A stretch of DNA of 64,000 nucleotides, taken from NCBI GenBank assembly GCA_021735655.1, contig JAIPGM010000003.1:32001-96000 (forward strand), read 5' to 3'. The notes beneath the pieces are model-generated. The model searched no databases. It was not told the DNA's origin and saw only the letters and a program-made list of their open reading frames with translations. Numbering within the stretch: the stretch's first letter is position 1; each line of letters opens with the position of its first letter. This stretch comes from Candidatus Omnitrophota bacterium (GTDB taxonomy: Bacteria > Omnitrophota > Gorgyraeia > Duberdicusellales > 4484-171). A program made the position numbers and the translations under genes. Below are positions 6,382-20,160 of the stretch, in pieces.

Positions 6382-6393
6382 AAGGAGTAGTCT

Positions 6394-7434
6394 ATGAGCC
6401 CAGACATGAATATAGTGCGTTCCCAGAAACTTGCCGATAAAATTGTTATTGTAGACGGACAACCCGGTTGCGGTAAAACTATGCTTTCACCGATTGTTGC
6501 TGCTTTGGATAGGGTGGAGTTACTTATGTTTGTTTATGAGATAGAATATTTTTGCGCTTTAAGATATTTACAAAAAATGGATAAAGATACAGCCGAAACT
6601 TTAATTAAATTGATTACTGATTTAAGAATTTATAATGCAATGATGTCGCGGGAAGTAAATTTTCGCTTCAGCGATGCTTCAAGCGCCTTTAAAGATATAA
6701 ATCCCCTGAAATACATTAGGAGGCTTTTTCAAAAGGGTGATGACTTGGTCCCTGAAAGAATAAAGAACCAGAGACCAATTTTGCATTTGGCTACCCATGA
6801 TCTCTTAAGCAGGGCCGATTCAGTTTTTGCTGCTTTAGGTGAAAATCTTGTTTTTATAGAGGTGGTGAGGCATCCTTTATACATGCTTAAACAAGAAGCA
6901 GTTAATATGCAGCGGCTATTCTTATCCGATCCTAAGCATTTTGAAGTATATTTTTCTTATAAGGATAAAGAGTTGCCTTATTTTGTTTATGGGTGGGAGG
7001 ATTTATTTTTTTCTTCTAATCATATTGAAAAAGCTATCTATTTAATCAATAGCATGACTGAGAGAACAGAGGCTTTTAAGAATAATGTAGAGGAAAAGTT
7101 GAACGGAGCTAAGTTGATAACAATTCCTTTTGAAGGTTTTGTGATAAGTCCTGAACCTTATTTGAAAGAAATAGAATTAGCTTTAGACACAAAAGTAACT
7201 AAGGCTACGCGTAAAATGATGAAACGTCAGAATGTGCCACGTAAGATGTATGCTCAAGGTGTTAAACTCGATGTTTACGAAAAGTATGGATGGGAGGCAC
7301 CTAAATCAACAGATGAGTATAGTGAATTAAACCTGCGTCGGAAATTTGCCCAAGATAATGCTTCTGAGGATGCAATGGTTGTGCTTGATAGGCTTTCTAA
7401 AAAGTATGAAGATGAATATTTAAATAAAAAGTAA
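6394..7434 (+). CDS. P-loop (Walker A) protein of unknown function inside the nonulosonic-acid module; candidate kinase or sulfotransferase-like enzyme
   Basis: A Walker-A-like VIVDGQPGCGKTML lies near the N-terminus. No other family signature was recognised by eye. The gene is tightly packed between the aminotransferase and the cytidylyltransferase. Confidence 0.3.
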   Translation: MSPDMNIVRSQKLADKIVIVDGQPGCGKTMLSPIVAALDRVELLMFVYEIEYFCALRYLQKMDKDTAETLIKLITDLRIYNAMMSREVNFRFSDASSAFKDINPLKYIRRLFQKGDDLVPERIKNQRPILHLATHDLLSRADSVFAALGENLVFIEVVRHPLYMLKQEAVNMQRLFLSDPKHFEVYFSYKDKELPYFVYGWEDLFFSSNHIEKAIYLINSMTERTEAFKNNVEEKLNGAKLITIPFEGFVISPEPYLKEIELALDTKVTKATRKMMKRQNVPRKMYAQGVKLDVYEKYGWEAPKSTDEYSELNLRRKFAQDNASEDAMVVLDRLSKKYEDEYLNKK

Positions 7435-7448
7435 AAGAGAGGTTTATT

Positions 7449-8111
7449 GTGAAAACAATTGTATTAGTTCCGGCAAAACTTAAAAGTGACAGAGTTCCTT
7501 TTAAAAATATAAAACAGTTAGGTGGAGTTCCTTTAGTCAATTATACCATGCGTACTTTAAATAAACTTTCAGACATTAATGATATTGTTGTTTTTGCCTC
7601 AGAGCCTTCCATATGCGAGTATATACAGCGCGGATTAAAATATACATTCCTGGAGCGTCCGACAGAGCTGGATACTCAAGATACAAAAATACAGGATATT
7701 ATAAGAGAGTTTTTAAACAGAAGTGATGCCGATATAGTTGTCCTAGTGCATATTACTTCACCATTTTTGCAGGCTGAAACAATCTCTGACTGCATAAAAA
7801 AGGTTCATTCTGGTCAGTATCATACAGCTTTCACTGCATATGAAGTTAGAAAATTCTGTTGGTTTCGCGATAAACCGCTTAACTATTCTTTAGATAAACC
7901 TACACCACGCACTCAGGATATAAACCCGGTAGTTGTAGAGCAGGCTAGTTTATATGTATTTAGGAGAGAGGTTTTTGAAAAAACAGGCCAGCGGATTTGC
8001 TCTAAGCCTTATATTAAATATATTGATCATTTCGAGGGCCATGATATTGATACTCCGGAAGACTTTAGGGTTGCAGAATTGATTGTTAATACAGGTCTCT
8101 TTGCAATATAG
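7449..8111 (+). CDS. Acylneuraminate cytidylyltransferase family (CMP-nonulosonic acid synthetase, NeuA/LegF/PseF-like)
   Basis: N-terminal VLVPAKLKSDRVPFKNIKQLGGVPLVNYT matches the CMP-NeuAc/CMP-Kdo synthetase glycine-rich loop. GTG start with an AGAGAGG RBS upstream. Confidence 0.75.
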   Translation: MKTIVLVPAKLKSDRVPFKNIKQLGGVPLVNYTMRTLNKLSDINDIVVFASEPSICEYIQRGLKYTFLERPTELDTQDTKIQDIIREFLNRSDADIVVLVHITSPFLQAETISDCIKKVHSGQYHTAFTAYEVRKFCWFRDKPLNYSLDKPTPRTQDINPVVVEQASLYVFRREVFEKTGQRICSKPYIKYIDHFEGHDIDTPEDFRVAELIVNTGLFAI

Positions 8112-8122
8112 GATGTAATTAA

Positions 8123-9262
8123 ATGGATCAAGAAACAATTTTTAAGAAAATTTACAATGTCGAACTTAACCAGGATAAGTATGACATTGTAATTGGTAAA
8201 GGTTTACTTGAAACTGCTGTTTTAGAAGCCTTAGAGAAACGGACTAAAAATAAGAATGTTGTTTTTGTCTTTGATGTATTTTTTCAAGATAGAAGCAATG
8301 CTTTTATAGATTTTTTATCTAAGGCTGGCTACAAAGTTTACCCATATTATATGGTAGCTGGCAAGCATAATAAAACTATAAGTGAGGCAATAAAAATATA
8401 CGAAATTCTTGAGGCTAACAGTCTATCTAGAGACTCAACTATAGTAGCTTTAGGAGGTGGTGTTCTTGGCGATTTAGCTGGATTCGTAGCAAGCACATAT
8501 CATCGCGGGATGAAGCTTATAAATATACCGACCACCCTTACGGCCATGATTGACAGTAGCATTGGAGGCAAGGTCGCTATAAATTTCAGAAAGACTATTA
8601 ATGCCATAGGAAATTACTATCATCCTATAGCAAATGTTATTGATTTTAAATTTATTAGTACATTACCTCAACGTGACTTTAAGGCTGGACTGGCTGAGAT
8701 AATAAAATGTGCAATTATTAACGATAAAGAACTGTTTGATTATCTTAAATCTAATAGCCAGAAGATTCTTGACCGGGATGAAGATTCTTTATTCAATATC
8801 ATGTGTCGAGCCATAGAGATTAAACTTGTTCATGTATCAGGGGATGTGAAGGAGAAGAATGAGAGACTCAAGCTCAATTACGGCCACACCTTAGGACATT
8901 CCATAGAGATTTCGACCGATGTCTTAGAGGAGATTTATCGCCATGGAGAGGGGGTGTCTCTTGGCATGGTTGCTGCAGCATTTTTGGCAAGAAAATATTT
9001 TGGACAAGGTCAAGATATCTTAGATGCTCATGAGGAGATTCTTAACCAGTATGGCCTTCCAACCCGAGTTCATGCAAAAGATATTGGTTTTGAATATAAG
9101 AGTTTGATTGAAGAATGTATGCGAAATGTTCATAAAGATAAAAAGAAAAAGGATAACAAACTCAGATTTATTCTTCCTGATGAAATTGGTAAATGCCAGG
9201 TCTACGATCGTGTGGCAGATGATGCTATCAGGGAGGCATTTGTTTATCTTATAAAGGAGTGA
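8123..9262 (+). CDS. 3-dehydroquinate synthase-like sugar-phosphate cyclase superfamily protein
   Basis: Signature of the DHQS/2-deoxy-scyllo-inosose synthase family: ALGGGVLGDLAGFVASTYHRGMKLINIPTTLTAMIDSSIGGKVAINF. Metal-binding histidines are in the C-terminal half (NYGHTLGHSIE). Confidence 0.7.
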   Translation: MDQETIFKKIYNVELNQDKYDIVIGKGLLETAVLEALEKRTKNKNVVFVFDVFFQDRSNAFIDFLSKAGYKVYPYYMVAGKHNKTISEAIKIYEILEANSLSRDSTIVALGGGVLGDLAGFVASTYHRGMKLINIPTTLTAMIDSSIGGKVAINFRKTINAIGNYYHPIANVIDFKFISTLPQRDFKAGLAEIIKCAIINDKELFDYLKSNSQKILDRDEDSLFNIMCRAIEIKLVHVSGDVKEKNERLKLNYGHTLGHSIEISTDVLEEIYRHGEGVSLGMVAAAFLARKYFGQGQDILDAHEEILNQYGLPTRVHAKDIGFEYKSLIEECMRNVHKDKKKKDNKLRFILPDEIGKCQVYDRVADDAIREAFVYLIKE

Positions 9263-9263
9263 T

Positions 9264-10025
9264 ATGAAAGAAAAAAAATCTTTAGAAAGAAAAACTTGTA
9301 TTATAACTGGATCTGGTAAGGGAATTGGAAGAGCAGCCGCAGAGCTTTTTTATAATCATGGGGCTAACTTGGCATTGATTACCAGAGATAAACAAGACTT
9401 GATATCCTTAAGGGACGATGTCGGATTTGACGATGAACGAATTTTTCTAAGCCAGGGAGACGTCTCTGATGAGGAAACGGTTAAAAGATTCATACAAGAA
9501 ACTATAGGAAAATTTAAAAAAATAGATGTTCTTATTAATAATGCCGGTATACGTTTCAGGAAAGATTTTTTAGACACCACGACAGAGGAGTGGGATCAAG
9601 TAATTAATAATAACCTCAATAGCACATATCTTTTTTCTAGGGAAGCAGGGCGAAATATGGTTTCAAGAAAAGAGGGCAAAATTGTTAATATTGTATCGAT
9701 TGTAGGTACGCTTGGATTGCCTCAGCTTTCCGCATACGGAGCATCAAAAGGAGGAGTAATCACGCTTACGAAATGCTTAGCTTTAGAGTGGGCCAAATGC
9801 AATATTAATGTTAACGCTATTGCCCCAGGATTTTGCGAAACATCGTATGTAGAAAAGTTTAGAAAAAAAGAAGAACTATATAAATTTACTATAGAAAGGA
9901 CGCCGCAGAAAAAATGGGGAACTTCTCTTGACATAGCAGAAGCCTGTCTTTTCTTATCCACAGAAGCATCTAAGTATATTACTGGTGAAGTGTTAAATGT
10001 TGATGGTGGTTGGAGTGCTTGGTAA
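9264..10025 (+). CDS. Short-chain dehydrogenase/reductase (SDR, FabG/PtmA-like)
   Basis: TGSGKGIGRAAA (TGxxxGxG), NNAG, and YGASKGG (YxxxK). Confidence 0.8.
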   Translation: MKEKKSLERKTCIITGSGKGIGRAAAELFYNHGANLALITRDKQDLISLRDDVGFDDERIFLSQGDVSDEETVKRFIQETIGKFKKIDVLINNAGIRFRKDFLDTTTEEWDQVINNNLNSTYLFSREAGRNMVSRKEGKIVNIVSIVGTLGLPQLSAYGASKGGVITLTKCLALEWAKCNINVNAIAPGFCETSYVEKFRKKEELYKFTIERTPQKKWGTSLDIAEACLFLSTEASKYITGEVLNVDGGWSAW

Positions 10026-10109
10026 AAATAATAAATTAAGAATAAAAAATGTTTTAAGATAGTAGAAAATTATTGTATTTTGTAATTAATATTGAGACAA
10101 ATATTTAAA

Positions 10110-12260
10110 ATGGGAATGAGGGGTGAGGAGAAAAATAATCAGAGAAGTTATTATATACAAAATCTTACAGTCGCTCCTTGGCTAGTATCGATAGCTCCTT
10201 ATCTAATGCGTAATTTTTTCAAGGGGAATAGAAATATCAAAGTTTATTTTATCGATGCTTCAATATGTGGTTTATGGCTGGCGCGCTTCATGTTATTATT
10301 TTTTGGTCTCAAGCTTAATGAGTTGAAATTTCGTTTGGTTGATGTCCATGATGACGATGGTGTTCTTCTGCATCTACGAGTAGATTATTTTGATTCTACG
10401 GTTGTGCAAAAATATATATTGGAAAGGCCTATTTTCTCGGAGCTGTTTTTAAACAAGCCTGCTAAAAGTAGAATAGCTATGTTTTTGGCAAAACGCATTT
10501 TTGCCTCTGCTAGTAAGCCTGAATCGACATTAGATAGAGCAGTTTATCTCATTCAAGTAGTTAAGCAAAAGTCAAAAGAGTATGTAGCTGAATGCTTGCA
10601 GCCTGTTTTGTTTTTGGACAGAAGGTTGTGGATGAATGAAATTAAAAGATATGCGTGCAAGCATAATATATCTGTTATTGGCGCTAAAAGTTTTAATATC
10701 AATTTTAAATATTTTTTATTAGGGTTTTTGGGACCAAAAATAAATATTTTAAAAAATATCTATTTTTGGTTTTTAAGAATAAAAAGAAGTTTTTGCAGTA
10801 AGTATGGCTGGATTGTTAAAAATAAGAAATCAATTTCAATCGTTATCAGACATAAAAAAAATAATGCAGATAATAGCATTATTGGTAGCCAGGTAAAGCT
10901 TGGGGTTAACTATTATGGTCATCTTAATCTTAATAATCCAGAACTGTATTCGGATTTATTTTTTTTACAGCAGTCAGATTTATCAGGAAAAGATATTTTA
11001 ATCGTATCTAATATGCTGTTTGATCCCATTGATGATAAAAAATTAATGGAGATTGCCAAGCATGATATGAATGTAGTTGCGCTTTCAGCAAAGGCAACTA
11101 ATAGTTTTTCCGTGCCGTTTTTTTACCATTGGCCGAGTCGTAGCTCAAATTCATCGTTTAAGTTTATCTCAAAAAATGCTTATAATGGCGATGAGCGCAG
11201 ATGGTTTCTGCGGCAGATGAGAGACTACTATAAGGATTGTAATTATTGGCAGGATTTTTTTGCAAAGCATAATGTTAAGGCATTTATGACTTGGTATAAG
11301 TATGATGCTTCTCACTGTGTTGTTGCCGATGCCATGCGGAATGTTGGAGGAATAATGGCTGTTTATCAACGCGCCTTTGAGGAATTTCCTTCTTGCAAGA
11401 CAACGATTGCGTCTGATGTTGTGTTTGGTTTTTCGCCTGCAAATGCTGAGATTGAACGTCTTTCCGGTTCACAGATTTCCTACCATATTTCTACAGGTTA
11501 TTATGCTGACTACAGGCTACCTTTGCTAAAGGCGCATGCACAGAGGGTGCGCACATCTCTACAGCAAAGAGGAGCTAAACAAATTATTGCTTATTTTGAT
11601 GAAAATTCCGGAGCTGATTCTCGTTGGCATAATGGGCATGAATCTACAATAGCTAATTATGATTTTTTACTTAAAAAAGTTTTATCTCAAAAATGGTTTG
11701 GTCTTATTTTAAAACCTAAGGTTCCCTCAACGTTAAGATTGAGGCTGGGGCTAACGGCAGACTTACTTAAGGAAGCAGAAGCAACTGGAAGGTGTTTTGT
11801 CTTTGAGGCAGGGGCCTTGCATAGTGCCTACCCTCCCGCTATAGCTGCTCTAGCTTCTGATATCGCCATCCACGGTCATCTGTATGCTGCAACAGCTGGG
11901 CTTGAATCAGCGCTTGCAGGAGTCCCTACTCTTTTACTTGATCGTGAAGGCTGGTCGATTAGTAAATTATACCATTTGGGTTTAGGACGGGTAGTTTTTA
12001 CTGATTGGCAAAGTCTTTGGAAAACATATATTGAATATTGGCAGGATTCCAGGAAGGTGCCAGGCTTCGGCGATTGGTCTTCGATGATAAATGATTTAGA
12101 TCCTTTCAGAGATGGCCGAGCAGCAGAAAGAATAGGTACATACTTGAAGTGGTTGCTTGACGGCTTTAAGCAAGGGCTTAAACGAGAAGATATTATGGCT
12201 TCTGCCGCAGAGCGTTATGCTAGGATTTGGGGAAGTGATAAAATAGCTACACTGGGGTAG
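10110..12260 (+). CDS. Large hypothetical protein (about 715 aa); the C-terminal region resembles GT-B glycosyl/phosphoglycosyl transferases of capsule or teichoic-acid type
   Basis: Long + strand ORF. The start is uncertain: the track gives a TTG at 10092, and the first in-frame ATGs are at 10110 and 10116. The C-terminal segment ...EAGALHSAYPPAIAALASDIAIHGHLYAATAGLESALAGVPTLLLDREGW... looks like a GT-B C-terminal nucleotide-binding fold. An AT-rich 85-bp intergenic precedes it. Confidence 0.3.
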   Translation: MGMRGEEKNNQRSYYIQNLTVAPWLVSIAPYLMRNFFKGNRNIKVYFIDASICGLWLARFMLLFFGLKLNELKFRLVDVHDDDGVLLHLRVDYFDSTVVQKYILERPIFSELFLNKPAKSRIAMFLAKRIFASASKPESTLDRAVYLIQVVKQKSKEYVAECLQPVLFLDRRLWMNEIKRYACKHNISVIGAKSFNINFKYFLLGFLGPKINILKNIYFWFLRIKRSFCSKYGWIVKNKKSISIVIRHKKNNADNSIIGSQVKLGVNYYGHLNLNNPELYSDLFFLQQSDLSGKDILIVSNMLFDPIDDKKLMEIAKHDMNVVALSAKATNSFSVPFFYHWPSRSSNSSFKFISKNAYNGDERRWFLRQMRDYYKDCNYWQDFFAKHNVKAFMTWYKYDASHCVVADAMRNVGGIMAVYQRAFEEFPSCKTTIASDVVFGFSPANAEIERLSGSQISYHISTGYYADYRLPLLKAHAQRVRTSLQQRGAKQIIAYFDENSGADSRWHNGHESTIANYDFLLKKVLSQKWFGLILKPKVPSTLRLRLGLTADLLKEAEATGRCFVFEAGALHSAYPPAIAALASDIAIHGHLYAATAGLESALAGVPTLLLDREGWSISKLYHLGLGRVVFTDWQSLWKTYIEYWQDSRKVPGFGDWSSMINDLDPFRDGRAAERIGTYLKWLLDGFKQGLKREDIMASAAERYARIWGSDKIATLG

Positions 12261-12298
12261 TTATCCAAATGTAACAATAGGTTAGAGAAGATATAACT

Positions 12299-13051
12299 GT
12301 GAATATACAAATTTTTATAAAAAAAGTTAAAAATAAACTGAAAACATTTTGGTTGCAAATAGCTACCTTAAGGAGTGCTAATTTGCGTTGGTTGTTTCGG
12401 AATCGTTATTTGCGTATGGATGCTAATGTAACAACAAATCCGGTTGAGAGAAGGATTTTTCATATTGATCGATATAAATTCGCCGTGAATAAACTTAGAA
12501 AAGTTTATAGCGATACAAGGAATTTACTTATTGTTGATGTTGCTTGTGGTACAGGGTATGGCTCGGATATTTTAAAAAAAGTTAATCCGAAAAAAATAAT
12601 AGGTATTGATATTTGTCCTGAGACAGTTAAATATGCTCAAAAAAAATATGGAACGCATCATTGTATTTTTAATACTAGCGATGCTGTCGAAATGAATATT
12701 ATTAAATCAGGAACTGTCGATGTGGTCGTTTCATTTGAAACCATTGAGCATTTAGAGCAGCCGATAATTTTTTTGAAGAACGTAAAAAGGGTATTGAAGA
12801 ATAAAGGATGCTTAATTATTTCCACACCTAATAGTTGGGGAGAAACAAGAGACCATAGGTTTGATTATGATTATCAATTGCTGAAGACTCACCTTGAACA
12901 ATTCTTCACGATAGACTCTATGTATGTTCAAAATAGCGGAAGTATGAATTTATGGATGAATAGAGGTTTTCAGCGGCGGTTAATTCCAGTGAGTCCCGAT
13001 AACGTTAATGAGGCCGAATGTTTTATAGCCATAGCCAGAAATTATTTTTAA
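12299..13051 (+). CDS. Class I SAM-dependent methyltransferase
   Basis: Motif I LIVDVACGTGYGSDIL, and VVVSFETIEHL as a motif II/post-I region. GTG start at 12299; an alternative ATG lies at 12416. Confidence 0.7.
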   Translation: MNIQIFIKKVKNKLKTFWLQIATLRSANLRWLFRNRYLRMDANVTTNPVERRIFHIDRYKFAVNKLRKVYSDTRNLLIVDVACGTGYGSDILKKVNPKKIIGIDICPETVKYAQKKYGTHHCIFNTSDAVEMNIIKSGTVDVVVSFETIEHLEQPIIFLKNVKRVLKNKGCLIISTPNSWGETRDHRFDYDYQLLKTHLEQFFTIDSMYVQNSGSMNLWMNRGFQRRLIPVSPDNVNEAECFIAIARNYF

Positions 13052-13061
13052 TAGTGTTGTT

Positions 13062-14018
13062 TTGTGCAGAGCGAATAAATTTATGAGAAATAAAATTAAT
13101 TTTTTAAAGGGATATGTCAAAAGGTATGTAGTTGCTGCATATAAACGACAGAAGTTACAGGCAGGTGAGTTTCCCCCCCAGCTATGGATAGAGAATACCA
13201 ATCATTGTAATGCAGCGTGTGTCATGTGTCCTCGTGATAAGCATAATCGGTCGCTTGGTTTTATGGAGTTTTCCCTTTTTGAACGTCTGATTAAGGAAAT
13301 AGCTGTACATAAAAATAATGTTTCAGCTGTTCATATGCATAATTATGGCGAACCGCTTATGGATAAAGAATTAATCAAAAAAGTAAAACTAGCTAAGGAT
13401 TATGGGATAAAACATGTTTATTTTGTTACCAACGCAGCATTGTTGACTAGTGATTTATCAGAAAAGCTAATAGCCTCAGGGCTTGATCAATTTAAAATAA
13501 GTTTTTATGGAACCGATAGACAAACATATAACGCTACAATGAGAGGGCTTGATTTTGATCAAACAATGTCTAATGTTAAGCAATTTTTCCAAATACGAAA
13601 GAAGATGAAGTCCCTTCAACCTAAAGTTATAATTCAATACCTTCCTCAGTCTCACAACAAGGCAGAAATTAGCAAATTTAAAAGTATTTTTGATTCCATG
13701 ATTGATTCTAAATTAGGCGATAGGTTGAATATTTATTCTTTGTTGAATTTCGGGGAAGGGAGAAGTTATAATAACTTTGCCAGAAGAATAGTTAGTTCAA
13801 TATGCAATTATCCGTGGAGGACTATGGTGGTATTGCATGATGGCCGGGTTACGGCTTGCTGTATGGATTATAATGGGGTTTTATCTATGGGAAATGTTAC
13901 TCAGAGCACTATAAAGCAAATATGGAATAACCAAACTTATAAAAAAATCAGAGAGGATTTTAAAAAGCTTGATTACAAAGAATACCAGGTTTGTAGAAAT
14001 TGTGATCTTATTTTTTAG
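13062..14018 (+). CDS. Radical SAM enzyme with SPASM-like C-terminal cysteine cluster
   Basis: CNAACVMCPRD carries the CxxxCxxC 4Fe-4S/SAM motif. Additional C-terminal cysteines (ACCMDYNG ... CRNCD) are consistent with an auxiliary-cluster (SPASM/twitch) domain. Confidence 0.65.
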   Translation: MCRANKFMRNKINFLKGYVKRYVVAAYKRQKLQAGEFPPQLWIENTNHCNAACVMCPRDKHNRSLGFMEFSLFERLIKEIAVHKNNVSAVHMHNYGEPLMDKELIKKVKLAKDYGIKHVYFVTNAALLTSDLSEKLIASGLDQFKISFYGTDRQTYNATMRGLDFDQTMSNVKQFFQIRKKMKSLQPKVIIQYLPQSHNKAEISKFKSIFDSMIDSKLGDRLNIYSLLNFGEGRSYNNFARRIVSSICNYPWRTMVVLHDGRVTACCMDYNGVLSMGNVTQSTIKQIWNNQTYKKIREDFKKLDYKEYQVCRNCDLIF

Positions 14019-14028
14019 GTAAATTTTT

Positions 14029-15828
14029 ATGAGAATAATTTGTTTTTTAAATCCAAAATTAATTAGCAGTCACAAAATTCCCGTTTTTAATAAAAATCGT
14101 TATATTATTTCCTATGATGAGTTTAAACCGCGGGAAGCTATTACTAGAGATAGCAACCTTAAACAAATTATAATTTTTCCAATAACAAATCAAGAGCGGG
14201 CCACTTGCGAAAGAGAGTATATCGCTAATGTTTCAAAATTATCCGAGATTTTTGATTCATTGGAGTGGTGGGCGAATCCAATTTCTGAGAAAAATGAACA
14301 TTCTTCTATACAGTATAAAGATTTGTGTTTATTTTTTTCTTTAATAAAAACTATAGATAAACATAGGGATGAACGATGCGACATTTTGGTTTATGGGGAC
14401 GGTAGTATTTATAATATTCTGAGAAAGCATTATTCGAACAAGGGGATACAGGTAGTATTCATAGGTAGCAAACTCTTTAGAAACATCCAAAGTTTTATAT
14501 ACCAGATACTAAAAATCGTATTATTATTTTTTAAAATTATTTCACGCAAGTTATTTTTGAGGAAAATAGCCAGTAAACTAAGGAAACAATTAAGTAACAA
14601 AAGCTGTTATTATGTAATAAGGACATGGCTTTATAATCAACCAGATGCTAATTTCAGAAATGATGCTTTTTTTGGAAGATTGCCTGAATACGCAGCGAAT
14701 CGAGGCAATAAAGTATTACTGCTAGGTGGAATTATTGATAATTATCGAAAGATTTTGCAAAAAATATTAAAGTCTGATGGTAAAACTATTGTTATTCCGG
14801 AAGAGTATTTTTTAAAATATTCAGATATTTTTAAGTTATTCGTTTATTTTAAATTTAAAATCAGGAAGCTTGATAGCAAAATTATTTTTAAGGGAATTGA
14901 TGTAACAGATTACTATTCTCAAGAGATTTTTAAAGGATTTTGGCAAGACTCATATATTTATAATATTATTCGTTATATGATTGCAAAGCGTTTTGGCGAA
15001 ACTGTTAATTTTAATGTTTTCCTGCAGACTTTTGAAAATTATGCTTGGGAAAAAGTGACCATTAAAGGGATTAAGGCGGCAAGGAGCAATTGTAGGGTAT
15101 TAGGATTTCAGCATGCCTTCGTGTCAAGGAATTCATTTAAGTATTTTCCTGGACAACAGGAATTAGACAGGATTCCTTTACCAGATAAAATTATTACTAT
15201 GGGTGAGAGGACAAAAGAGATTTTGCAAAATTACGGAGCTTATCGCAAAGAACAAATCGTAGTTGGTTGTGCTTTACGCCAACAGTATCTCGATGATTTG
15301 TCTTTTATAGAGAGGCGGCGTTGCAATAAAATACTAGTACCATTGACAATGGTTACTCAGGAGTCAATCAGAATTATTAAGTTTCTTTGCGACTCTAATA
15401 TTTCTAAGACAAATAAAAATATTGTTATTAGGCCTCATCCAGCACGGGATTTTAAATCAGTAAAAGAAAAGATTCCATTTGAAATACCCAGTAATTTTAT
15501 AATTAATAATTGTAAGACGATGAAGGAAGAGTTATCTGATGCAGGTATGGTTTTGTATACTTGGTCAACGATTTCTGCCGAAGCATTAAGATTGGGGTTG
15601 CCGGTAATTTATCTGGATATATTAAGGCCACTTTATGTTGATCCTTTATTTGAATGTGATGCTCTTAAAAGAAAGGTTAGTGAGGCTGATGAGCTTGTGC
15701 CGGCAGTTGACAGCCTTTATGGGATAAGTAATGATGATTTTGAAATTGAACGGAAGATGGCCAGTGAGTATAGTAAAAGTTATTTTTATCCAGTAACAGA
15801 AAGTAATTTAGCACATTTTTTTTCGTAA
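14029..15828 (+). CDS. Large hypothetical protein (599 aa), possibly glycosyl/phosphoglycosyl transferase-like
   Basis: Long ORF in the operon. The C-terminal region ...IVIRPHPARDF...DAGMVLYTWSTISAEALRLGLPVIY... resembles the C-terminal Rossmann half of GT-B enzymes. No definitive motif was identified. Confidence 0.3.
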   Translation: MRIICFLNPKLISSHKIPVFNKNRYIISYDEFKPREAITRDSNLKQIIIFPITNQERATCEREYIANVSKLSEIFDSLEWWANPISEKNEHSSIQYKDLCLFFSLIKTIDKHRDERCDILVYGDGSIYNILRKHYSNKGIQVVFIGSKLFRNIQSFIYQILKIVLLFFKIISRKLFLRKIASKLRKQLSNKSCYYVIRTWLYNQPDANFRNDAFFGRLPEYAANRGNKVLLLGGIIDNYRKILQKILKSDGKTIVIPEEYFLKYSDIFKLFVYFKFKIRKLDSKIIFKGIDVTDYYSQEIFKGFWQDSYIYNIIRYMIAKRFGETVNFNVFLQTFENYAWEKVTIKGIKAARSNCRVLGFQHAFVSRNSFKYFPGQQELDRIPLPDKIITMGERTKEILQNYGAYRKEQIVVGCALRQQYLDDLSFIERRRCNKILVPLTMVTQESIRIIKFLCDSNISKTNKNIVIRPHPARDFKSVKEKIPFEIPSNFIINNCKTMKEELSDAGMVLYTWSTISAEALRLGLPVIYLDILRPLYVDPLFECDALKRKVSEADELVPAVDSLYGISNDDFEIERKMASEYSKSYFYPVTESNLAHFFS

Positions 15829-15852: not shown

Positions 15853-16737
15853 ATGAAAATACTAATTACAGGGGCAGCGGGCATGCTTGCTGAGGAAGTG
15901 GTATCTAATTTATTAAAGCATGGGCACAAGGTTGTTCAAGCAGACATAAACCAACGTCTTCCAGATATATTAAAAATTAATATTCAAGATCGTGATGGTG
16001 TCATGAGGTTGGTAGAAAAAGAGAGCCCGGATTATATTTTCCATCTTGCTGCTGAGACTGATGTCGATTTATGTGAAGAAGATCCCGATCATGCTTTTAG
16101 AGTGAATAGCCAGGGAACCGAGAATATTGCTCTAGTTTGTTTGGAGCATAAGATACCTTGTCTATATATTAGCACAGGGGCAGTTTTTTCTGGAGTTAAG
16201 CAAGAGCCTTACACAGAGTTCGATACACCTTTACCAGTAAGTGTTTACGGTAGGAGTAAGCTAAAGGGCGAAGAGATAGTTAAAAATACTTTAAATAAAT
16301 ATTTTATAATTCGTGCTGGATGGATGGTTGGTGGTTGGGAACTTGACAAAAAGTTTGTTTATAAGATAGTTCAACAGCTAAAAAAAGGCCAAAAGCAATT
16401 ACGTGTAGTTGCTGATAAATTTGGTTCACCTACCTTTACAAAAGATTTTGCAAATAATCTTATGAGTGTTATTAATAGTAAGCGCTATGGATTGTATCAT
16501 ATGGCAAATACAGGTACATGTTCACGTTATGATATGGCAGTAAAGATAGTTGAATATATGGGGTTGAATGGTCAAGTAACAATTGAGCCTGTTAGCTCTG
16601 AACAATTTCCTTTATCTGCCCCCCGTGCTCGTTCAGAAATGATGCAAAATCACAAGTTGCAATTGTTAGGACTCAACAATATGCCACGTTGGGAAGATTC
16701 TCTCAAAAACTACATTAAAGAGAATAAATGCAGATAA
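15853..16737 (+). CDS. RmlD-like NAD(P)-dependent reductase (dTDP-4-dehydrorhamnose reductase family)
   Basis: ILITGAAGMLA near the N-terminus, catalytic YGRSKLKGE, and FGSPTFTKDFANNL typical of the RmlD substrate-binding family. About 294 aa. Confidence 0.7.
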   Translation: MKILITGAAGMLAEEVVSNLLKHGHKVVQADINQRLPDILKINIQDRDGVMRLVEKESPDYIFHLAAETDVDLCEEDPDHAFRVNSQGTENIALVCLEHKIPCLYISTGAVFSGVKQEPYTEFDTPLPVSVYGRSKLKGEEIVKNTLNKYFIIRAGWMVGGWELDKKFVYKIVQQLKKGQKQLRVVADKFGSPTFTKDFANNLMSVINSKRYGLYHMANTGTCSRYDMAVKIVEYMGLNGQVTIEPVSSEQFPLSAPRARSEMMQNHKLQLLGLNNMPRWEDSLKNYIKENKCR

Positions 16738-16738
16738 A

Positions 16739-17683
16739 ATGACAGAGTCAAAAAAAATAGATATTATTATTCCTGCTTACAATAAAGCAGATTTAACAGT
16801 TAAGGCCATTGATAGCGTATTGCAGCAAACTTACAATAATATAGAAATAATAGTAGTCGATGATGGTTCAACGGATGAAACTAAAAAGTTAATTTCATCC
16901 GTTAAAGATAAAAGCAAGGTAAAGTATATCTATAAAGATAATGGTGGTGCTTGTAGCGCTAGAAATTTAGGTATAAAAGTTTCTCAAGCTCAGTACATCG
17001 GATTTCTCGATTGCGATGATATGTACTTACCTCAAAAGGTGGAATTAAGTCTTGCTTATCTAGAGGATAACCCCGATATTGGGTTTGTTCATACGGCAGC
17101 TTATTTTATAGACGAGAACGACACTATTTTGCGTCAATTTTCTCCTAAGATAAGCACTAAAGTGGGCAAAATTAAAGATAATCTTGTTTTACGTAATTTT
17201 ATTTGTCCATCAACTACGATTATTAGAAAATCGTGCATCGATGAAGTTGGTTACTTTGATGAGTCAATTTTTACTCCGGCAGATTGGGATATGTGGCTAA
17301 GGTTGACAGAAAAATTTAAAGCTAGCTATATTGATATCCCTTTAACTATGTATAGAGTTTCAGATAGCTACATTTTAAGCAATCTAATTCAATCAGAGAA
17401 AGAAGAGCAGATAGTGCTAGATAAGCTATTTGTGAGAAATCTTCAAATTAATGATTTCACTAAAAGCAAAGCAATCTCTAATATGTATCTACGCTCGGCT
17501 ATAAATTACCTAATGACTGGAGATTTGCCTTCATCTAGGAGTAAGTTCCTTGCATCGTTAAGAGAAAACAGATTGAATTTCAAGGCTTTAGCGATGTTCA
17601 TATACTTTACTTTGGCTAAGCAAAACCTAAGAGCAAAAGTGACGAAAAAAATATTCGCTAAAGATTATTTCTCTGACGCATGA
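16739..17683 (+). CDS. Family 2 glycosyltransferase
   Basis: IIIPAYNKADLTVKAIDSVLQQTYNNIEIIVVDDGSTDET and a DCDD (DxD) motif. Confidence 0.8.
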   Translation: MTESKKIDIIIPAYNKADLTVKAIDSVLQQTYNNIEIIVVDDGSTDETKKLISSVKDKSKVKYIYKDNGGACSARNLGIKVSQAQYIGFLDCDDMYLPQKVELSLAYLEDNPDIGFVHTAAYFIDENDTILRQFSPKISTKVGKIKDNLVLRNFICPSTTIIRKSCIDEVGYFDESIFTPADWDMWLRLTEKFKASYIDIPLTMYRVSDSYILSNLIQSEKEEQIVLDKLFVRNLQINDFTKSKAISNMYLRSAINYLMTGDLPSSRSKFLASLRENRLNFKALAMFIYFTLAKQNLRAKVTKKIFAKDYFSDA

Positions 17684-17709
17684 TCAGGAGGATAATTTAA
17701 TTTAACGGT

Positions 17710-19431
17710 ATGGTTTTTACTAATTTTAAAAATAAAAATACCCTTGAAACTTTAATAAACACAACAGGGTTATTGGCTCTTGGTTTAGCCTCTTTTTTAT
17801 ACTGCATTCTTCATAGAAACTTTGCTGAATTAAACCTAAAATTATCCTTTTTGGATTTTCCCATCTTTATTGGGGAAGTACTATTAATTTTTTGTTTACT
17901 TTTTTTAGCAATAAAGCTGACTCTTAATTTTCCCAGATTTAACCGAGGGCATTGTTTAGTATTAATTTATTTTTTATTTATATTAATAAAAGCCTTTTGG
18001 GGATACTCTAAATGGGGACCGCTTGCCTTTCGGCACGCAGCTTTATTTTACTACCCCCTATTTTTTATCTTTGGCTATAAATTTTACCAGAAAAGTTTTT
18101 TTAACAAGTACACAATCCCGATTATATTTTTATTTTTGGTGTACAACACCCGTCAGACTACTTTAGTTTCACTTCTGCTTGCAGTTGTCCTTTTGATTGC
18201 TTATTGGAGGAAAAGTAAGCTATCCTACGTTCTCCTTTTAGGTCTTTTATCCTTTACACCCTTTCACTTGCTCTATAAAAGCTCACGAACAGCAATGATT
18301 AGCAGTTTCCTTACCATACTTTTCATTCTGGCTGCTTTGCTTTTTATATCTAAGCTAAAAATAAGGTATAAAATTTACCTCTTGATAGCTTCTTTTGTTT
18401 TCTCCCTGTTAGTTTTATTTAAGGTTTCACCGACCAATGAATTAAAATCTTTAGTGTCGTTTAAGCATTTACTTAATGGATATAAACTAGAACGCCAAAG
18501 AATAGCTGAAAGAGAGATTAATTTTGGAATTCAGGATATAAAAGTAGCCCTATACAATCCAGAGGTTAAGCAAAATGGCTTAAAACAGACTATTCAAGTA
18601 AAGCCAGATGAACCTCAGGTAGACTTAGAAAGAGTTAAGCCGGCCTTAGAAGAAATAGTAGTTGTTAGCAGCAGTCTTAAAGATCCAGAGGCCGAGGTAA
18701 TACAAGCAAGAATAAGAGAGCTTAAGGATAAGGTGGGAAAAAATGAAGCCACATTATCTAAAAACCAATTGAACACTCAAGAGGGCCTCAATAGCCTATA
18801 TAGAAATGCTAAGGGTGTAGTTCGTATTTTAGAAGATAAATCGAGCATACTTTCTTTGGAGGATATAAGGAAGATTGAGCGAGCTAAGACTTTGCTTGGT
18901 GAACTTTCAGTTATAATCGATAAATCCCAAGCAAAGAGTAAGGCTAAACCAATTACCCGCAATCTAGACGGAGCCAATACTAGTTCTTTGTTTAGGATTT
19001 TTATTTGGGAAGATATGATAAAGCAACTCATAGAAGAAAAACCGCTTTTGGGATTTGACTTTGGCAAACCCCTGCGCTCAAAGAATATTGAAATATTATA
19101 TTTGGCTGAAGCCGATTGGAAAGCCTGCGGTTGGATAACTCCACACAACTCTTATCTTCATGCTGTCTACAGGGCTGGGGTTGTAGGACTATTGTACGTA
19201 ATTATAATTTATATTTTTCTGCTGATAATGATAAAAAACTTTATTTCTTTACGTTCAGTTAAAGGCATACTACTGTCGGGGAGCGTAATGGTTTGGTTGA
19301 TAGCAGCTAATTTTTTTGTTATTTTTGAATTGCCTTATAGTGCTATTCCTTTTTGGAGTCTATTCGGTATGAGCTGGGCTTATCTAAGCGGTCTCAATAG
19401 AAAACTTAACAGTCAGAGGAGGAAGATGTAG
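17710..19431 (+). CDS. O-antigen ligase/polymerase family (Wzy_C) membrane protein with a large, charged, coiled-coil-like periplasmic loop
   Basis: Multiple hydrophobic TM segments at both ends. Wzy_C signature GFDFGKPLRS...PHNSYLHAVYRAGVVGLL. A roughly 220-aa hydrophilic K/E-rich insertion lies between the TM blocks. Confidence 0.6.
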   Translation: MVFTNFKNKNTLETLINTTGLLALGLASFLYCILHRNFAELNLKLSFLDFPIFIGEVLLIFCLLFLAIKLTLNFPRFNRGHCLVLIYFLFILIKAFWGYSKWGPLAFRHAALFYYPLFFIFGYKFYQKSFFNKYTIPIIFLFLVYNTRQTTLVSLLLAVVLLIAYWRKSKLSYVLLLGLLSFTPFHLLYKSSRTAMISSFLTILFILAALLFISKLKIRYKIYLLIASFVFSLLVLFKVSPTNELKSLVSFKHLLNGYKLERQRIAEREINFGIQDIKVALYNPEVKQNGLKQTIQVKPDEPQVDLERVKPALEEIVVVSSSLKDPEAEVIQARIRELKDKVGKNEATLSKNQLNTQEGLNSLYRNAKGVVRILEDKSSILSLEDIRKIERAKTLLGELSVIIDKSQAKSKAKPITRNLDGANTSSLFRIFIWEDMIKQLIEEKPLLGFDFGKPLRSKNIEILYLAEADWKACGWITPHNSYLHAVYRAGVVGLLYVIIIYIFLLIMIKNFISLRSVKGILLSGSVMVWLIAANFFVIFELPYSAIPFWSLFGMSWAYLSGLNRKLNSQRRKM

Positions 19432-20160
19432 ATGCAAGAGAAAGCTTCAGTAGTTGGAATGGATAAATTTTGCAAGAATTCTTTTGATGCTTTCTTTCAA
19501 AAGATACCTTTTTTGTGGCTTAAAAAGTTACTAGATAGAAATAACATTGATTTAAATGAAAAGTCGGTCTTAATCGCTGGATGTGGGATAGGCCGTGACA
19601 TTTACCACTTGCAAGATTTTTATAAATTTGACAGATTGTACGCCTCCGACATTAGTATCGATTCGCTTAAATCAACTATTTCTTCTTTTCCTTTGGCCAA
19701 AGGAGTAATTGTCGATAATCAACGGTTAGGATTGGAAACTGATTCTGTTGATTATGTTTTTGTGGGAACCTCTTTGCATCATTTGAAGGAACCATTGAGA
19801 GGGCTATATGAGCTATTGAGAGTTGCTAAAAAAGGACTGATAGTTATGGAGCCTAACGATACTTGGCTTACCAGACTTTTTGAGAAATTAGGCTTGGCTC
19901 AGGAATACGAAATTGAACATAAAAATTATGTTTATCGATTTAGGAAAAGAGAGGTAGCCAAGATAAGCAATGCCTTATTTTTCAAATACGATCTTTGCCG
20001 TTTTTTTGCTACCCATAGGGCACCAACAACAAAGATAGAGTTTTGTGCCCTAAAAATTATACACAGATTATCTAATTTATTTTTTCCTAGTTTTGGAAAT
20101 CATATTGTGTTTATAATCAAAAAAGAAAAGTTACTTCCTAGATGCTTGCAAGCTAAGTAA
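19432..20160 (+). CDS. SAM-dependent methyltransferase (class I)
   Basis: LIAGCGIGRD (motif I), VFVGTSLHHL and LIVMEP. Confidence 0.6.
   Translation: MQEKASVVGMDKFCKNSFDAFFQKIPFLWLKKLLDRNNIDLNEKSVLIAGCGIGRDIYHLQDFYKFDRLYASDISIDSLKSTISSFPLAKGVIVDNQRLGLETDSVDYVFVGTSLHHLKEPLRGLYELLRVAKKGLIVMEPNDTWLTRLFEKLGLAQEYEIEHKNYVYRFRKREVAKISNALFFKYDLCRFFATHRAPTTKIEFCALKIIHRLSNLFFPSFGNHIVFIIKKEKLLPRCLQAK

Follow-up and report, generated by a model that had tools for sequence, protein, structure and literature searches.

Closest described systems

The solved protein most closely related to the radical-SAM enzyme of this locus, by a wide margin, is BtrN, the 2-deoxy-scyllo-inosamine dehydrogenase of the butirosin pathway (PDB 4M7T). 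Both have a CX3CX2C core and a twitch domain, in which each of the four cysteines of the auxiliary cluster has its counterpart in the other protein. The radical-SAM gene also has a cyclase-superfamily gene and DegT aminotransferase genes nearby, a setting it shares with the butirosin cluster. However, the two enzymes are remote in sequence, the enzyme described here is ~60 residues longer, and its gene lies among surface-glycan genes and not in an aminoglycoside cluster. The neighboring cyclase homologue belongs with DHQS rather than with DOI synthase and is dispensable in the related locus L102. The desosamine pathway (DesIV-DesI-DesII-DesVI-DesVII) contains the same series of enzyme types, namely, a 4,6-dehydratase, a DegT 4-aminotransferase, a radical-SAM enzyme with the amino sugar as its substrate, a SAM methyltransferase, and a GT-B transferase. 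The LegC-like protein of the locus weakly matches the DesI model (190 bits), and the radical-SAM family profile weakly matches DesII (5e-5), but DesII lacks a twitch domain and its match is far weaker than that of BtrN. In some loci (L015 and L099), the radical-SAM gene occurs without LegB and LegC, and the likeness to desosamine synthesis is one of logic only.

The two large proteins of the locus, A and B, have more distant counterparts. The Tannerella forsythia proteins Tanf_01245/TFUB4_00887 are GT-B enzymes with an HP motif, as in B, and CMP as the presumed leaving group (PMC5420450). They have ~445 aa and are matched by TagB/GT-B models, whereas A and B (600-716 aa) have an extra N-terminal domain and no such match; A, unlike the Tannerella proteins, also lacks the HP motif. 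No conserved copy of the D/E-D/E-G motif was seen by eye in A or B. The TagF/TarL teichoic-acid and TagF-like capsule polymerases (PF04464; PDB 3L7I, 8VA1, and 8A0C) have no profile relation to A or B and do not come first in Foldseek searches, and no TagD or TarI/J (CDP-glycerol/-ribitol) genes adjoin A or B. Judged by sequence, A and B lie outside the TagF family. Weak similarity links the C-terminal half of B to TIGR04326 (LIC13510 family; profile of 602 positions), TIGR04396, and Pfam DUF6716, which are uncharacterized surface-carbohydrate biosynthesis or putative glycosyltransferase families, at scores far under the cut-offs (33 and 65 bits versus 250; 28 versus 125).

Gene content of the locus

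The window (the whole 64,000-nucleotide stretch of DNA that was analyzed) derives from an uncultured Omnitrophota bacterium that is probably anaerobic. It contains a Wzy-type surface-glycan cluster of about 57 kb, entirely on one strand, and the block at 10110-15828 would be its tailor-and-attach part. The relevant features are as follows.

3116..7434, + strand: amino-sugar precursor genes, for a CBS-nucleotidyltransferase (PtmE-like), a LegB-like 4,6-dehydratase, a LegC-family aminotransferase, and a P-loop protein without family
7449-8111, + strand: CMP-sugar-synthetase-like cytidylyltransferase (CTP_transf_3; Pfam/NCBIfam)
8123-9262, + strand: AroB-like 3-dehydroquinate-synthase homologue (Pfam/NCBIfam)
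9264-10025, + strand: SDR (Pfam/NCBIfam)
10026..10109, no strand: AT-rich intergenic gap of 84 nt that separates gene A from the SDR gene
10110..12260, + strand: gene A, 716 aa (722 aa if the start is 10092)
12299..13051, + strand: class-I SAM-dependent methyltransferase, 250 aa
13083..14018, + strand: radical-SAM enzyme with a C-terminal twitch domain, BtrN-like, 311 aa (318 aa from 13062)
14029..15828, + strand: gene B, 599 aa, with the GT-B transferase fold behind an N-terminal domain
15853..21343, + strand: downstream assembly block, with an RmlD-like reductase, GT2, a Wzy_C-like polymerase/ligase, a methyltransferase, and GT4 (Pfam)

The four genes in the order A, methyltransferase, radical-SAM, and B (10110-15828) are intact and conserved, each with full-length homologues in other MAGs (40 to 83% identity). 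This confirms the earlier observation of two large unrecognized proteins with a methyltransferase and a radical-SAM enzyme, and the open reading frames had been placed correctly (10092/10110-12260, 12299-13051, 13062/13083-14018, and 14029-15828). With the radical-SAM enzyme being BtrN-like, this combination is not described for surface glycans. The precursor genes match TIGR04180 (443 bits) and TIGR04181 (489 bits, exceeding its cut-off), and the order of the assembly block after B is kept in related loci L007, L013, L014, L016, L101, and L102.

The gap upstream of A had been described as 85 bp long, the first real intergenic space, and possibly an internal promoter. It is indeed the longest in the first ~34 kb, where the other spaces are ≤40 nt, but it measures 84 nt with the ATG at 10110. 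The promoter proposal finds no support: the gap has no sigma-70-like match on the + strand (although that consensus may not be the one used by Omnitrophota), no Rfam match, and no stable RNA fold (z of -0.4), and it is not conserved among relatives. In the three closest relatives, the site is occupied by a B12-binding radical-SAM gene, no remnant of which was detected within the gap.

Large proteins A and B

Neither A nor B matches a Pfam model or a PDB sequence, and no characterized protein has detectable sequence homology to either. The AlphaFold (AF2) models of both are confident and match GT-B enzymes only. Together these results bear out the earlier description of unrecognized proteins with GT-B-like C-terminal halves.

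In A, the GT-B transferase fold (~260-716) comes after an N-terminal alpha/beta domain (~1-240). The ATG at 10110 is favored as its start by the family alignment and by the first strand of the model (residues 11 to 19); the NCBI call of 684 aa, starting 32 codons later, would cut off a confidently modeled strand and helix. Invariant residues are D497-E498 and K535-P536-K537; the HP motif is absent, and K-P-K stands at its expected place. A represents a separately evolving, abundant orphan family that usually follows a LegC-type aminotransferase, which directly precedes it (position -1) in 16 of 36 well-flanked loci; in 20 of the 36, an aminotransferase is found within four genes. LegB-like genes are present in 13 of these 36 loci and NeuB-like genes in 7, and one recurrent order is WbuZ-HisH-WbuX-PtmE-LegB-LegC-A-(x)-B-like.

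B is a member of a very large uncharacterized superfamily. Its N-terminal domain bears a WWANPxSEKNEH motif, and its invariant residues include Q361-H362 and the HP motif, H470-P471, which follows a beta-strand of the C-terminal Rossmann domain; the HP argument is drawn from sequence position and not from structural superposition. Of nine well-flanked genome loci of B, six have a CTP_transf_3 gene no more than four genes away, and in four it is directly upstream. In more distant B loci, the cytidylyltransferase is KdsB-like (286 bits versus a cut-off of 255) and comes after genes for an HMGL-type pyruvate aldolase and an HAD phosphatase, which together form a plausible route to a ulosonic acid. 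Among B-like proteins beside A in metagenome loci, only 2 of 16 have a cytidylyltransferase within four genes.

Radical-SAM enzyme

The radical-SAM enzyme matches the Pfam models Radical_SAM (6e-14) and SPASM (1.5e-17; 64 bits). It contains CX3CX2C (C42/C46/C49) and exactly four other invariant cysteines (C241/C259/C304/C307). Since only four auxiliary cysteines are invariant, the C-terminal domain is a twitch domain with one 4Fe-4S cluster and not a seven-cysteine SPASM domain; of the SPASM/twitch-like assignment in the earlier note, the extra cysteines and the twitch thus stand, and the full SPASM does not. Against the PDB, BtrN is matched with an E value of 1.9e-14 (single sequence) or 1.1e-24 (family profile), and the next best match is 1e-8. 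Weaker matches include the sugar-modifying enzymes BlsE and DesII, as well as GDGT-MAS and MoaA, which do not modify sugars. Neither an anSME nor a peptide-modifying radical-SAM enzyme was matched by the family profile in the PDB. Among solved structures the enzyme is clearly BtrN-like, with weak similarity to DesII and none to anSME. It is not a housekeeping enzyme, and no NCBIfam cut-off is reached (best score of 115 bits versus 380). The likeness to BtrN fits the O2-independent modification suggested previously, of a sugar or a cyclitol.

Co-inheritance with upstream genes

The methyltransferase is a class-I enzyme, as first annotated (Methyltransf_11, 1e-18, and four sister models), with orthologues beside the radical-SAM and B genes in L101 (78% identity), L102 (64%), L001 (53%), and L005 (48%). 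The cytidylyltransferase, AroB-like, and SDR genes (7449..10025) are 71 to 79% identical in L101/L001 and 56 to 72% identical in Nitrospiraceae and Deltaproteobacteria MAGs. Within L101, the closest relative, identities are 76% (cytidylyltransferase), 71% (AroB-like), 74% (SDR), 78% (methyltransferase), 82% (radical-SAM), and 80% (B), and in the same locus only 47% for A, 35% for the Wzy-like protein, and 55% for GT2. Two MAGs, one from Nitrospiraceae (L015) and one from Deltaproteobacteria (L005), share the order cytidylyltransferase-AroB-SDR-(methyltransferase)-radical-SAM-B but have no A in it. The four genes are therefore not the single block originally proposed: methyltransferase, radical-SAM, and B belong with the upstream genes at 7449-10025, and A evolves separately. 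L102 has an HAD phosphatase instead of the AroB-like and SDR genes, and these two are therefore not obligatory. The PDB neighbors of the cytidylyltransferase are CMP-NeuAc synthetases and those of the AroB-like protein are true DHQS, whose catalytic and carboxylate-binding motifs it appears, by eye, to keep.

Proposed function and alternatives

The analysis establishes the gene set, folds, cysteine motifs, family relationships, and co-inheritance, and from these we infer which donors are used, what radical reaction takes place, and in what sequence the steps occur. The explanation favored here, to which we give about an even chance, is that one unit (7449 to 15828 minus gene A) makes, tailors, and attaches a CMP-activated acidic sugar, and that A, the second unit, attaches a different sugar. 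The cytidylyltransferase, AroB-like protein, and SDR would yield an acidic, CMP-activated sugar belonging to the 3-deoxy-2-ulosonic class. The radical-SAM enzyme would act on this sugar or on its precursor and remove a hydrogen from a carbinol carbon, with oxidation to a ketone, or elimination or epimerization, without O2. The class-I methyltransferase would methylate the sugar, with a possible contribution by the B12 radical-SAM methylase in relatives. B, as a GT-B enzyme with the HP motif, would add the completed residue to the elongating glycan and release CMP, and A would most likely transfer a LegB/LegC-type nucleotide-linked amino-dideoxy sugar or a derived nonulosonic acid.

In favor of this explanation, an HP motif such as that of B is also found in bacterial sialyltransferases. 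TagB-like nonulosonic-acid transferases of T. forsythia have this motif, and their genes adjoin CMP-sugar genes and a methyltransferase gene (PMC5420450). The TagB-like SpsB of Bacillus subtilis is dispensable for legionaminic-acid transfer (PMC7439481); therefore, adjacency to nonulosonic-acid genes does not prove a transfer function. The lack of a NeuB or KdsA-type synthase in the window and the presence of a DHQS-type enzyme, which does not fit a normal ulosonic-acid route, count against the favored explanation. So do the gene content of L102 and the low share (2 of 16) of B-like proteins beside A that have a cytidylyltransferase nearby.

It is rather unlikely, although this is the best of the alternatives, that A and/or B are TagF/TarL-type phosphotransferases using a CDP-activated donor to add phosphodiester-linked alditol-, sugar-, or small-molecule-phosphate decorations, comparable to those of teichoic acids and TagF-type capsules. 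The P-loop protein and cytidylyltransferase form a conserved upstream pair (window, L001, L102, and L101), which lends support, as kinase-plus-cytidylyltransferase logic makes CDP-X donors. TagF enzymes also have an HP motif like that of B, and a true PF04464 gene elsewhere in the window (51710-52807) indicates such chemistry. Nevertheless, no member of the A or B family matches PF04464 even at E ≤ 10, and profile comparison of both families with the PF04464 protein of the window itself gave nothing, so that the earlier note's own counter-proposal of ordinary TagF/capsule phosphotransferases lacks confident profile matches. TagF/TarL is also outside the top 50 Foldseek matches for A, A has K-P-K in place of the HP motif, and the cytidylyltransferase, a CTP_transf_3 protein, belongs with the CMP-sialic/Kdo enzymes and not with TagD/TarI.

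A role for A as an analogue of the nucleotide-sugar 2-epimerase/hydrolase (LegG/NeuC/PseG) acting directly after the LegC-type aminotransferase of a nonulosonic-acid pathway, rather than as a transferase, is less probable still. Compatible with this role, A directly follows the aminotransferase in 16 of 36 loci, it is flanked in L054 and L087 by the aminotransferase on one side and NeuB-PseG on the other, and no Epimerase_2 gene was seen among its annotated neighbors. However, A has no Epimerase_2 or PseG sequence signal and is twice the size of such enzymes, a NeuB-type synthase is encoded in only 7 of 36 A loci and not in this window, and PseG is already encoded in L054, L087, and L072.

Another, quite improbable, explanation follows 2-deoxystreptamine-like logic: the AroB-like protein, a DegT aminotransferase, the SDR, and the radical-SAM enzyme would build an (amino)cyclitol carboxylate or “carba-ulosonic acid” that is methylated, CMP-activated, and incorporated into the surface glycan by B as a pseudo-glycosyltransferase. 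Three 2-deoxystreptamine enzyme types (sugar-phosphate-cyclase superfamily, DegT aminotransferase, and BtrN-like radical-SAM) are encoded within 9 kb. The apparent DHQS motifs of the AroB-like protein are in keeping with this, and its glycan-locus copies, at 56 to 71% identity across phyla, look transferred and specialized rather than like housekeeping aroB. DAHP from primary metabolism would account for the missing synthase gene, and C1 of quinate, with its tertiary hydroxyl and carboxylate, mimics the anomeric center activated by CTP_transf_3. On the other hand, L102 keeps methyltransferase, radical-SAM, B, and cytidylyltransferase without AroB or SDR, AroB is also missing from the surroundings of the radical-SAM relatives in L099 and on contig P0199, and a saturated carbocycle is a difficult donor for glycosyl-type transfer. 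A literature search found no paper on such a carbocyclic residue or gene combination.

That the radical-SAM enzyme is instead an anSME/SPASM-like maturase of a locus enzyme, e.g., an alkaline-phosphatase-superfamily protein, is highly improbable: despite the Pfam SPASM match, best NCBIfam matches to metalloenzyme maturases (far under their cut-offs), and two Phosphodiest-family genes at 37240-41565, it has only four invariant auxiliary cysteines and no CX2CX5CX3C block, anSME and peptide-modifying enzymes are missing from its PDB matches, a distance of 23 kb separates its gene from the Phosphodiest genes, which do not accompany it in relatives, and no precursor-peptide-like open reading frame was noted adjoining it.

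The view that SPASM radical-SAM enzymes are rare in glycan loci is not borne out for this family. In all, 495 relatives were found, and at least 26 of 81 B homologues were taken as sharing a contig with one of the top 120 radical-SAM matches, using longest contigs of equal extent as a proxy. On other long contigs, relatives of the radical-SAM gene adjoin genes for CTP_transf_3, large Pfam-less proteins, B12-radical-SAM enzymes, and methyltransferases.

Gene content of the block

The genes of the window form an uninterrupted plus-strand array with ~36% G+C, and the block analyzed here comprises four of them:

10092/10110-12260, + strand, gene A (K9L86_02890), large orphan protein
12299-13051, + strand, class I methyltransferase (MT)
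13062/13083-14018, + strand, radical-SAM enzyme (rSAM)
14029-15828, + strand, gene B (K9L86_02905), large orphan protein

The four genes had been described previously from the sequence, and all are real and conserved, since each has full-length homologues (40-83% identity) in other metagenome-assembled genomes (MAGs). For the start of A, the ATG at 10110 agrees best with the family alignment and with the structure model, whose first strand comprises residues 11-19. The NCBI call (684 aa) would then be 32 codons short on the 5' side and lack a confidently modelled strand and helix. MT is unremarkable for its class and has a Rossmann-type SAM-binding domain, matching Methyltransf_11, 31, 23, 25, and 12, each above its cut-off.

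Genes flanking the block, all on the + strand, in order

Upstream: WbuZ/HisH/WbuX (acetamidino formation)
Upstream: CBS-nucleotidyltransferase, PtmE-like
Upstream: LegB-like dehydratase (443 bits)
Upstream: LegC-family aminotransferase (489 bits, above cut-off)
Upstream: P-loop protein of no family
Upstream: cytidylyltransferase (nearest to CMP-NeuAc synthetases)
Upstream: AroB-like protein (nearest to 3-dehydroquinate synthases, DHQS)
Upstream: SDR (KduD-like)
Downstream: RmlD-like, GT2, Wzy_C-like, methyltransferase, GT4, and WecG/TagA-like
Further downstream: sugar-nucleotide genes, an initiating Bac_transf, a second Wzy_C protein, and GT9s

The glycan locus ends at ~56.9 kb, where xseA, pnp, and ftsK start. 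No homologue of NeuB, NeuC, or KdsA was found among the annotated ORFs, with part of 42-56 kb covered by neighborhood-cluster similarity only; a complete legionaminic acid pathway in the window was accordingly rejected. The AroB-like protein scored higher against genuine 3-dehydroquinate synthases (190 bits) than against DOI synthase (122 bits) or EEVS (117 bits), and what we take to be the DHQS motifs, judged by eye, are kept. The P-loop gene (6394-7434) encodes a 346-aa protein with an N-terminal GQPGCGKT motif and no match in Pfam, NCBIfam, or PDB; it lies directly upstream of the cytidylyltransferase in the three closest loci (L101, L102, and L001), has relatives in several A loci, and could be a kinase or sulfotransferase-like enzyme.

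The SDR, cytidylyltransferase, and AroB-like genes were also considered as a set equivalent to Campylobacter PtmA/PtmB/PtmF. A 326-aa oxidoreductase is listed as PtmF for Plesiomonas and Campylobacter (PMC4481668), and we infer that its counterparts are the Gfo/Idh/MocA-type genes of other A loci and not DHQS homologues. The AroB-like gene therefore cannot be equated with PtmF, and the proposed equivalence was rejected. A literature search for DHQS-cytidylyltransferase pairing found nothing relevant.

Two evolutionary units

Comparative loci for B were taken from GTDB species representatives (12 loci, all MAGs, from Omnitrophota, Deltaproteobacteria, Planctomycetales, Nitrospiraceae, Saganbacteria, and Aminicenantes), and those for A from metagenomes (80 loci out of at least 221 confirmed relatives), with several more loci obtained by exact protein look-up.

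Identity of window proteins to those of the closest relative, L101

Cytidylyltransferase, 76%
AroB-like, 71%
SDR, 74%
A, 47% (10110-12260 versus L101:4925-7054)
MT, 78%
rSAM, 82%
B, 80%
Wzy-like, 35%
GT2, 55%

The order cytidylyltransferase-AroB-SDR-(B12 rSAM)-(MT)-rSAM-B is found again, minus A, in one MAG each of Nitrospiraceae and Deltaproteobacteria, whose AroB-like proteins share 56% and whose cytidylyltransferases share 69-72% identity with those of the window; in L102, a HAD phosphatase replaces AroB and SDR and the remainder is retained. The L101 identities and the loci lacking A indicate that MT-rSAM-B belongs to a larger co-inherited module starting at 7449 and that A is a separately evolving insert. 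The single four-gene block proposed in the earlier note thus gives way to two evolutionary units, A being 47% identical between the window and L101 and its flanking genes 71-82%. The mosaic nature of the locus fits transferase and polymerase genes that are swapped or diversify with glycan type.

Neighborhoods also differ. Among nine well-flanked genome loci of B, six have a CTP_transf_3 gene no more than four genes away and four have it immediately upstream (-1), but distant B-like proteins adjoining A have one within four genes in just 2 of 16. B therefore shares with sialyl/nonulosonic acid transferases a position beside a CMP-sugar synthetase gene (6/9). In distant B loci, the cytidylyltransferase is KdsB-like (286 bits, above cut-off), and the genes before it encode an HMGL-type pyruvate aldolase, an Fe-S protein, and a HAD phosphatase. 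In four such loci (L014:6615-8336, L009, L010, and L016), the aldolase is part of a ~575-aa fusion whose C-terminal region faintly matches MptE-like proteins and the sialyltransferase CST-I. The sequence of this fusion, LdpA-like Fe-S protein, HAD phosphatase, KdsB-like cytidylyltransferase, and B-family protein is recurrent in distant B loci. The B superfamily comprises 7,080 cluster representatives at an E value of ≤1e-3 and 1,903 at ≤1e-30, and all sampled members bearing a name are “hypothetical.”

For A, 36 anchors with ≥3 genes on either side were counted. A DegT aminotransferase lies within four genes in 20 and at -1 in 16; LegB-like genes (13/36), cytidylyltransferases (11/36), B-like proteins (11/36), and NeuB-like synthases (7/36) are less frequent. 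Two orders recur: WbuZ-HisH-WbuX-PtmE-LegB-LegC-A-(x)-B-like-Gfo/Idh-MT-SIS and aminotransferase-A-NeuB-PseG. Contig Ga0082335_1000138 (loci L056 and L087) carries two A-family genes ~30 kb apart in differing contexts, one by NeuB-PseG and the other by a cytidylyltransferase, a methyltransferase, and a B-like gene.

Proteins A and B

A has no match in Pfam or NCBIfam, and B, as a single sequence, has none in Pfam. B gave subthreshold scores with two NCBIfam “surface carbohydrate biosynthesis” families, TIGR04326 (33.4 bits; cut-off, 250) and TIGR04396 (28 bits; cut-off, 125), and a distant B-like protein reached 65 bits with TIGR04326 (LIC13510), below the curated cut-off of 250 required for membership. 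At an E value of ≤10, the A family (n = 44) had no consistent Pfam match, and 7 of 41 B-family members gave a weak signal for DUF6716 (“putative glycosyltransferase”). Profiles of the 44 A-family and 41 B-family sequences matched no solved structure among PDB sequences, and tblastn of A and B against plasmids gave no usable match.

AlphaFold models derived from the family alignments were confident for both A (pLDDT, 88.9; pTM, 0.89) and B (pLDDT, 89.5; pTM, 0.90). Each model has an additional N-terminal alpha/beta region (~240 aa in A and ~190 aa in B) followed by the two Rossmann-like domains of the GT-B fold, and structural matches were to GT-B enzymes only; B, by its matches (WbnH, 15.5; NeuC, 14.8; WaaB, 14.8; TarL, 13.6), is a generic GT-B protein. 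As modelled, A and B are two orphan GT-B families, and we regard these fold and family assignments as solid. They bear out the earlier description of two proteins of no recognized family with GT-B-like C-terminal halves.

In sialyl/nonulosonic acid transferases, HP and D/E-D/E-G motifs (as defined in PMC5420450) would be expected. The HP motif is invariant in B (H470-P471, straight after a strand of the C-terminal domain), as is Q361-H362, and B also has a conserved N-terminal WWANPxSEKNEH motif. In TagF/TarL enzymes, too, a catalytic histidine pair that includes an HP so placed would be expected. It is missing from A, which has no invariant His and carries D497-E498 and K535-P536-K537 at the corresponding positions. 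Inspection of the invariant columns by eye revealed no conserved D/E-D/E-G in either family. The two proteins were considered as paralogues, but the colinear hhalign alignment has a probability of 1.8%, and paralogy is therefore not claimed.

Profile hits to TagF or capsule phosphotransferases, which would have contradicted the earlier note, were looked for and none were found. PF04464 (Glyphos_transf) had no match to A or B at an E value of ≤1 or to any of the 44 A-family and 41 B-family members at ≤10. Neither family profile aligns with the PF04464 protein of the window itself (51710-52807; hhalign probability, <1%), so A and B are not ordinary TagF proteins at the sequence level, and TagF-type phosphotransfer by either or both is unlikely. 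That A is an analogue of an epimerase or hydrolase is less probable still: A matched neither the Epimerase_2 nor the PseG profile, B scored 16.5 bits with PseG against a cut-off for membership of 153, and the likeness of both to UDP-GlcNAc 2-epimerase/NeuC/PseG enzymes is at the level of fold only.

The true TagB/TagF gene (51710-52807; PF04464, 2.4e-17) overlaps by 8 nt with the next gene downstream, which encodes an ATP sulfurylase (PF01747, 7e-83). This pair (51710-53903) suggests that the glycan may carry phosphodiester-linked and sulfated substituents.

A BtrN-like radical-SAM enzyme

The rSAM protein matches Pfam Radical_SAM and SPASM (64 bits) and reaches no curated NCBIfam cut-off. In 31 family sequences, C42/C46/C49 (CX3CX2C) are invariant, with exactly four further invariant cysteines (C241, C259, C304, and C307), each of which aligns with a cysteine of BtrN. 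The C terminus is a twitch domain with one predicted auxiliary 4Fe-4S site rather than a seven-cysteine SPASM domain, which would bind two auxiliary clusters; the SPASM model still matches because twitch is a shortened SPASM. Of the earlier “SPASM/twitch-like” assignment, the four auxiliary cysteines uphold the twitch part, and full SPASM is contradicted by the lack of the CX2CX5CX3C block of SPASM/anSME-type maturases, the C terminus having just CX2C.

BtrN was the best match among PDB sequences both for the single sequence (E = 1.9e-14) and for the family profile (1.1e-24, 90 bits; second match, 1.2e-8), followed with the profile by GDGT-MAS (1e-8), BlsE (8e-6), DesII (5e-5), and MoaA (1e-4). 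The match to DesII covers the core domain only and is not a close relationship, and anSME was not among the profile matches. A role as a protein maturase is accordingly highly improbable, the Pfam SPASM match notwithstanding. The classification proposed earlier, among anSME, DesII, and BtrN families, can thus be settled as BtrN-like, with BtrN the closest characterized relative as judged by homology.

In an O2-independent radical reaction, BtrN oxidizes an aminocyclitol at a secondary alcohol, yielding a ketone, and DesII and BlsE likewise act on sugars; it is in antibiotic biosynthesis that radical-SAM enzymes acting on sugars, BtrN and DesII among them, are known. BtrN is encoded in a 2-deoxystreptamine cluster with the DOI synthase BtrS and has 2-deoxy-scyllo-inosamine as its substrate. 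The setting of the enzyme described here differs: it lies in a surface glycan locus, and the cyclase homologue there is nearer to DHQS than to DOI synthase and is lacking in L102. Its relatives on other long contigs occur amid CTP_transf_3 genes, large proteins without Pfam matches, B12-binding radical-SAM enzymes, and methyltransferases; one relative (50% identity) has an unrelated context. Literature searches found no paper tying BtrN/DesII-type enzymes to cell surface glycans and nothing relevant on radical-SAM enzymes in nonulosonic acid or O-antigen loci.

Proposed function

A composite model, the simplest that fits these observations and one that we consider evenly balanced between right and wrong, is a module that makes, tailors, and attaches one unusual acidic sugar. 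The cytidylyltransferase, AroB-like protein, and SDR would make this sugar, since the substrates of their closest characterized relatives (CMP-NeuAc/Kdo synthetases, DHQS, and KduD-like SDRs) are 3-deoxy-2-ulosonic acids or the phosphates of these. The rSAM and MT would tailor it, joined in relatives by B12 radical-SAM methylases, and B, which has an HP motif, would attach it. A would most likely transfer a LegB/LegC-type amino sugar or derivative. Both the donors and the radical reaction are what we infer from these relationships. Tannerella forsythia has GT-B enzymes with HP motifs, encoded beside CMP-nonulosonic acid genes and a methyltransferase (PMC5420450); B, like these TagB-like transferases, has CMP-sugar gene neighbors, and its invariant H470-P471 is a candidate for the motif; A lacks HP. 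Gene adjacency alone is no proof of transfer function, as the counterexample of Bacillus subtilis SpsB illustrates (PMC7439481).

On the nature of the radical step, a tentative but reasonable possibility is that an ordinary CMP- or NDP-sugar of the surface glycan is oxidized, epimerized, or subjected to an elimination independently of O2. This is the weaker and likelier version of a proposal that we consider very improbable, namely, a carbocyclic pathway in which the co-inherited module converts DAHP, a primary metabolite, to a CMP-activated carbocyclic or radically rearranged “pseudo-ulosonic acid” that is installed in the surface glycan. If the latter were true, aminoglycoside-type radical cyclitol chemistry would enter the envelope biosynthesis of anaerobes, and B would be the founder of a new glycosyltransferase family, as A would of another.

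The earlier interpretation as a whole is upheld in part and made more precise: the GT-B fold stands, neither large protein belongs to the TagF family, and the radical-SAM enzyme is BtrN-like; a full SPASM domain, a single block, and an internal promoter do not find support. What is new is a surface glycan locus with a BtrN-type enzyme and two undescribed GT-B families, which changes no major paradigm; as a target for enzymology the block is well defined, but it holds no surprise of principle. The BtrN-like subfamily has hundreds of relatives and lies among, and is co-inherited with, surface glycan genes in phyla that are uncultured and for the most part anaerobic (Omnitrophota, Saganbacteria, and Aminicenantes, and MAGs of Nitrospiraceae, Deltaproteobacteria, and Planctomycetales). 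This suggests that the envelope sugars of anaerobes are diversified by radical chemistry in place of the oxygenases that aerobes would employ. Two large “hypothetical” families are now defined, A by at least 221 relatives on metagenome contigs and B by a superfamily of ~7,000 cluster representatives, as GT-B transferases tied to amino sugar and CMP-sugar pathways and candidate transferases, a class of which little is known, for nonulosonic and related acidic sugars.

Intergenic gap and other features of the locus

The extremely AT-rich gap at 10026-10109 is the largest intergenic space of the first ~34 kb and had been put forward as a possible internal promoter. Nothing supports this: the gap contains no plus-strand sigma-70-like match, and it is unconserved, as L101, L102, and L001 each have a B12-binding radical-SAM gene at exactly that position. 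Sigma-70-like matches mean little here, because 46 sites were found in 8 kb versus 34 expected by chance. A riboswitch or structured leader was rejected (no Rfam match; fold z, -0.4), as was a deletion scar of the B12 radical-SAM gene, of which no remnant was detectable in the window. The longest noncoding stretch of the window, 588 nt (58291-58878), lies outside the glycan locus, upstream of the polynucleotide phosphorylase gene.

Within the glycan locus, consecutive genes at 26502-30230 encode a DmpF-like acetaldehyde dehydrogenase, a DmpG-like HMGL aldolase, and a three-domain TPP enzyme. Their product could be a branched-chain sugar or a pyruvate aldolase-derived 3-deoxy-2-ulosonic acid, which would provide the seemingly missing synthase. 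The locus also contains four DegT/DnrJ/EryC1 aminotransferase paralogues (5182-6381, 31188-32498, 43080-44222, and 50572-51693) and two Wzy_C-like proteins (17710-19431 and 35976-37235), which together suggest either multiple glycans or a highly complex repeat unit. Two paralogous alkaline phosphatase superfamily (Phosphodiest) proteins are encoded at 37240-41565.
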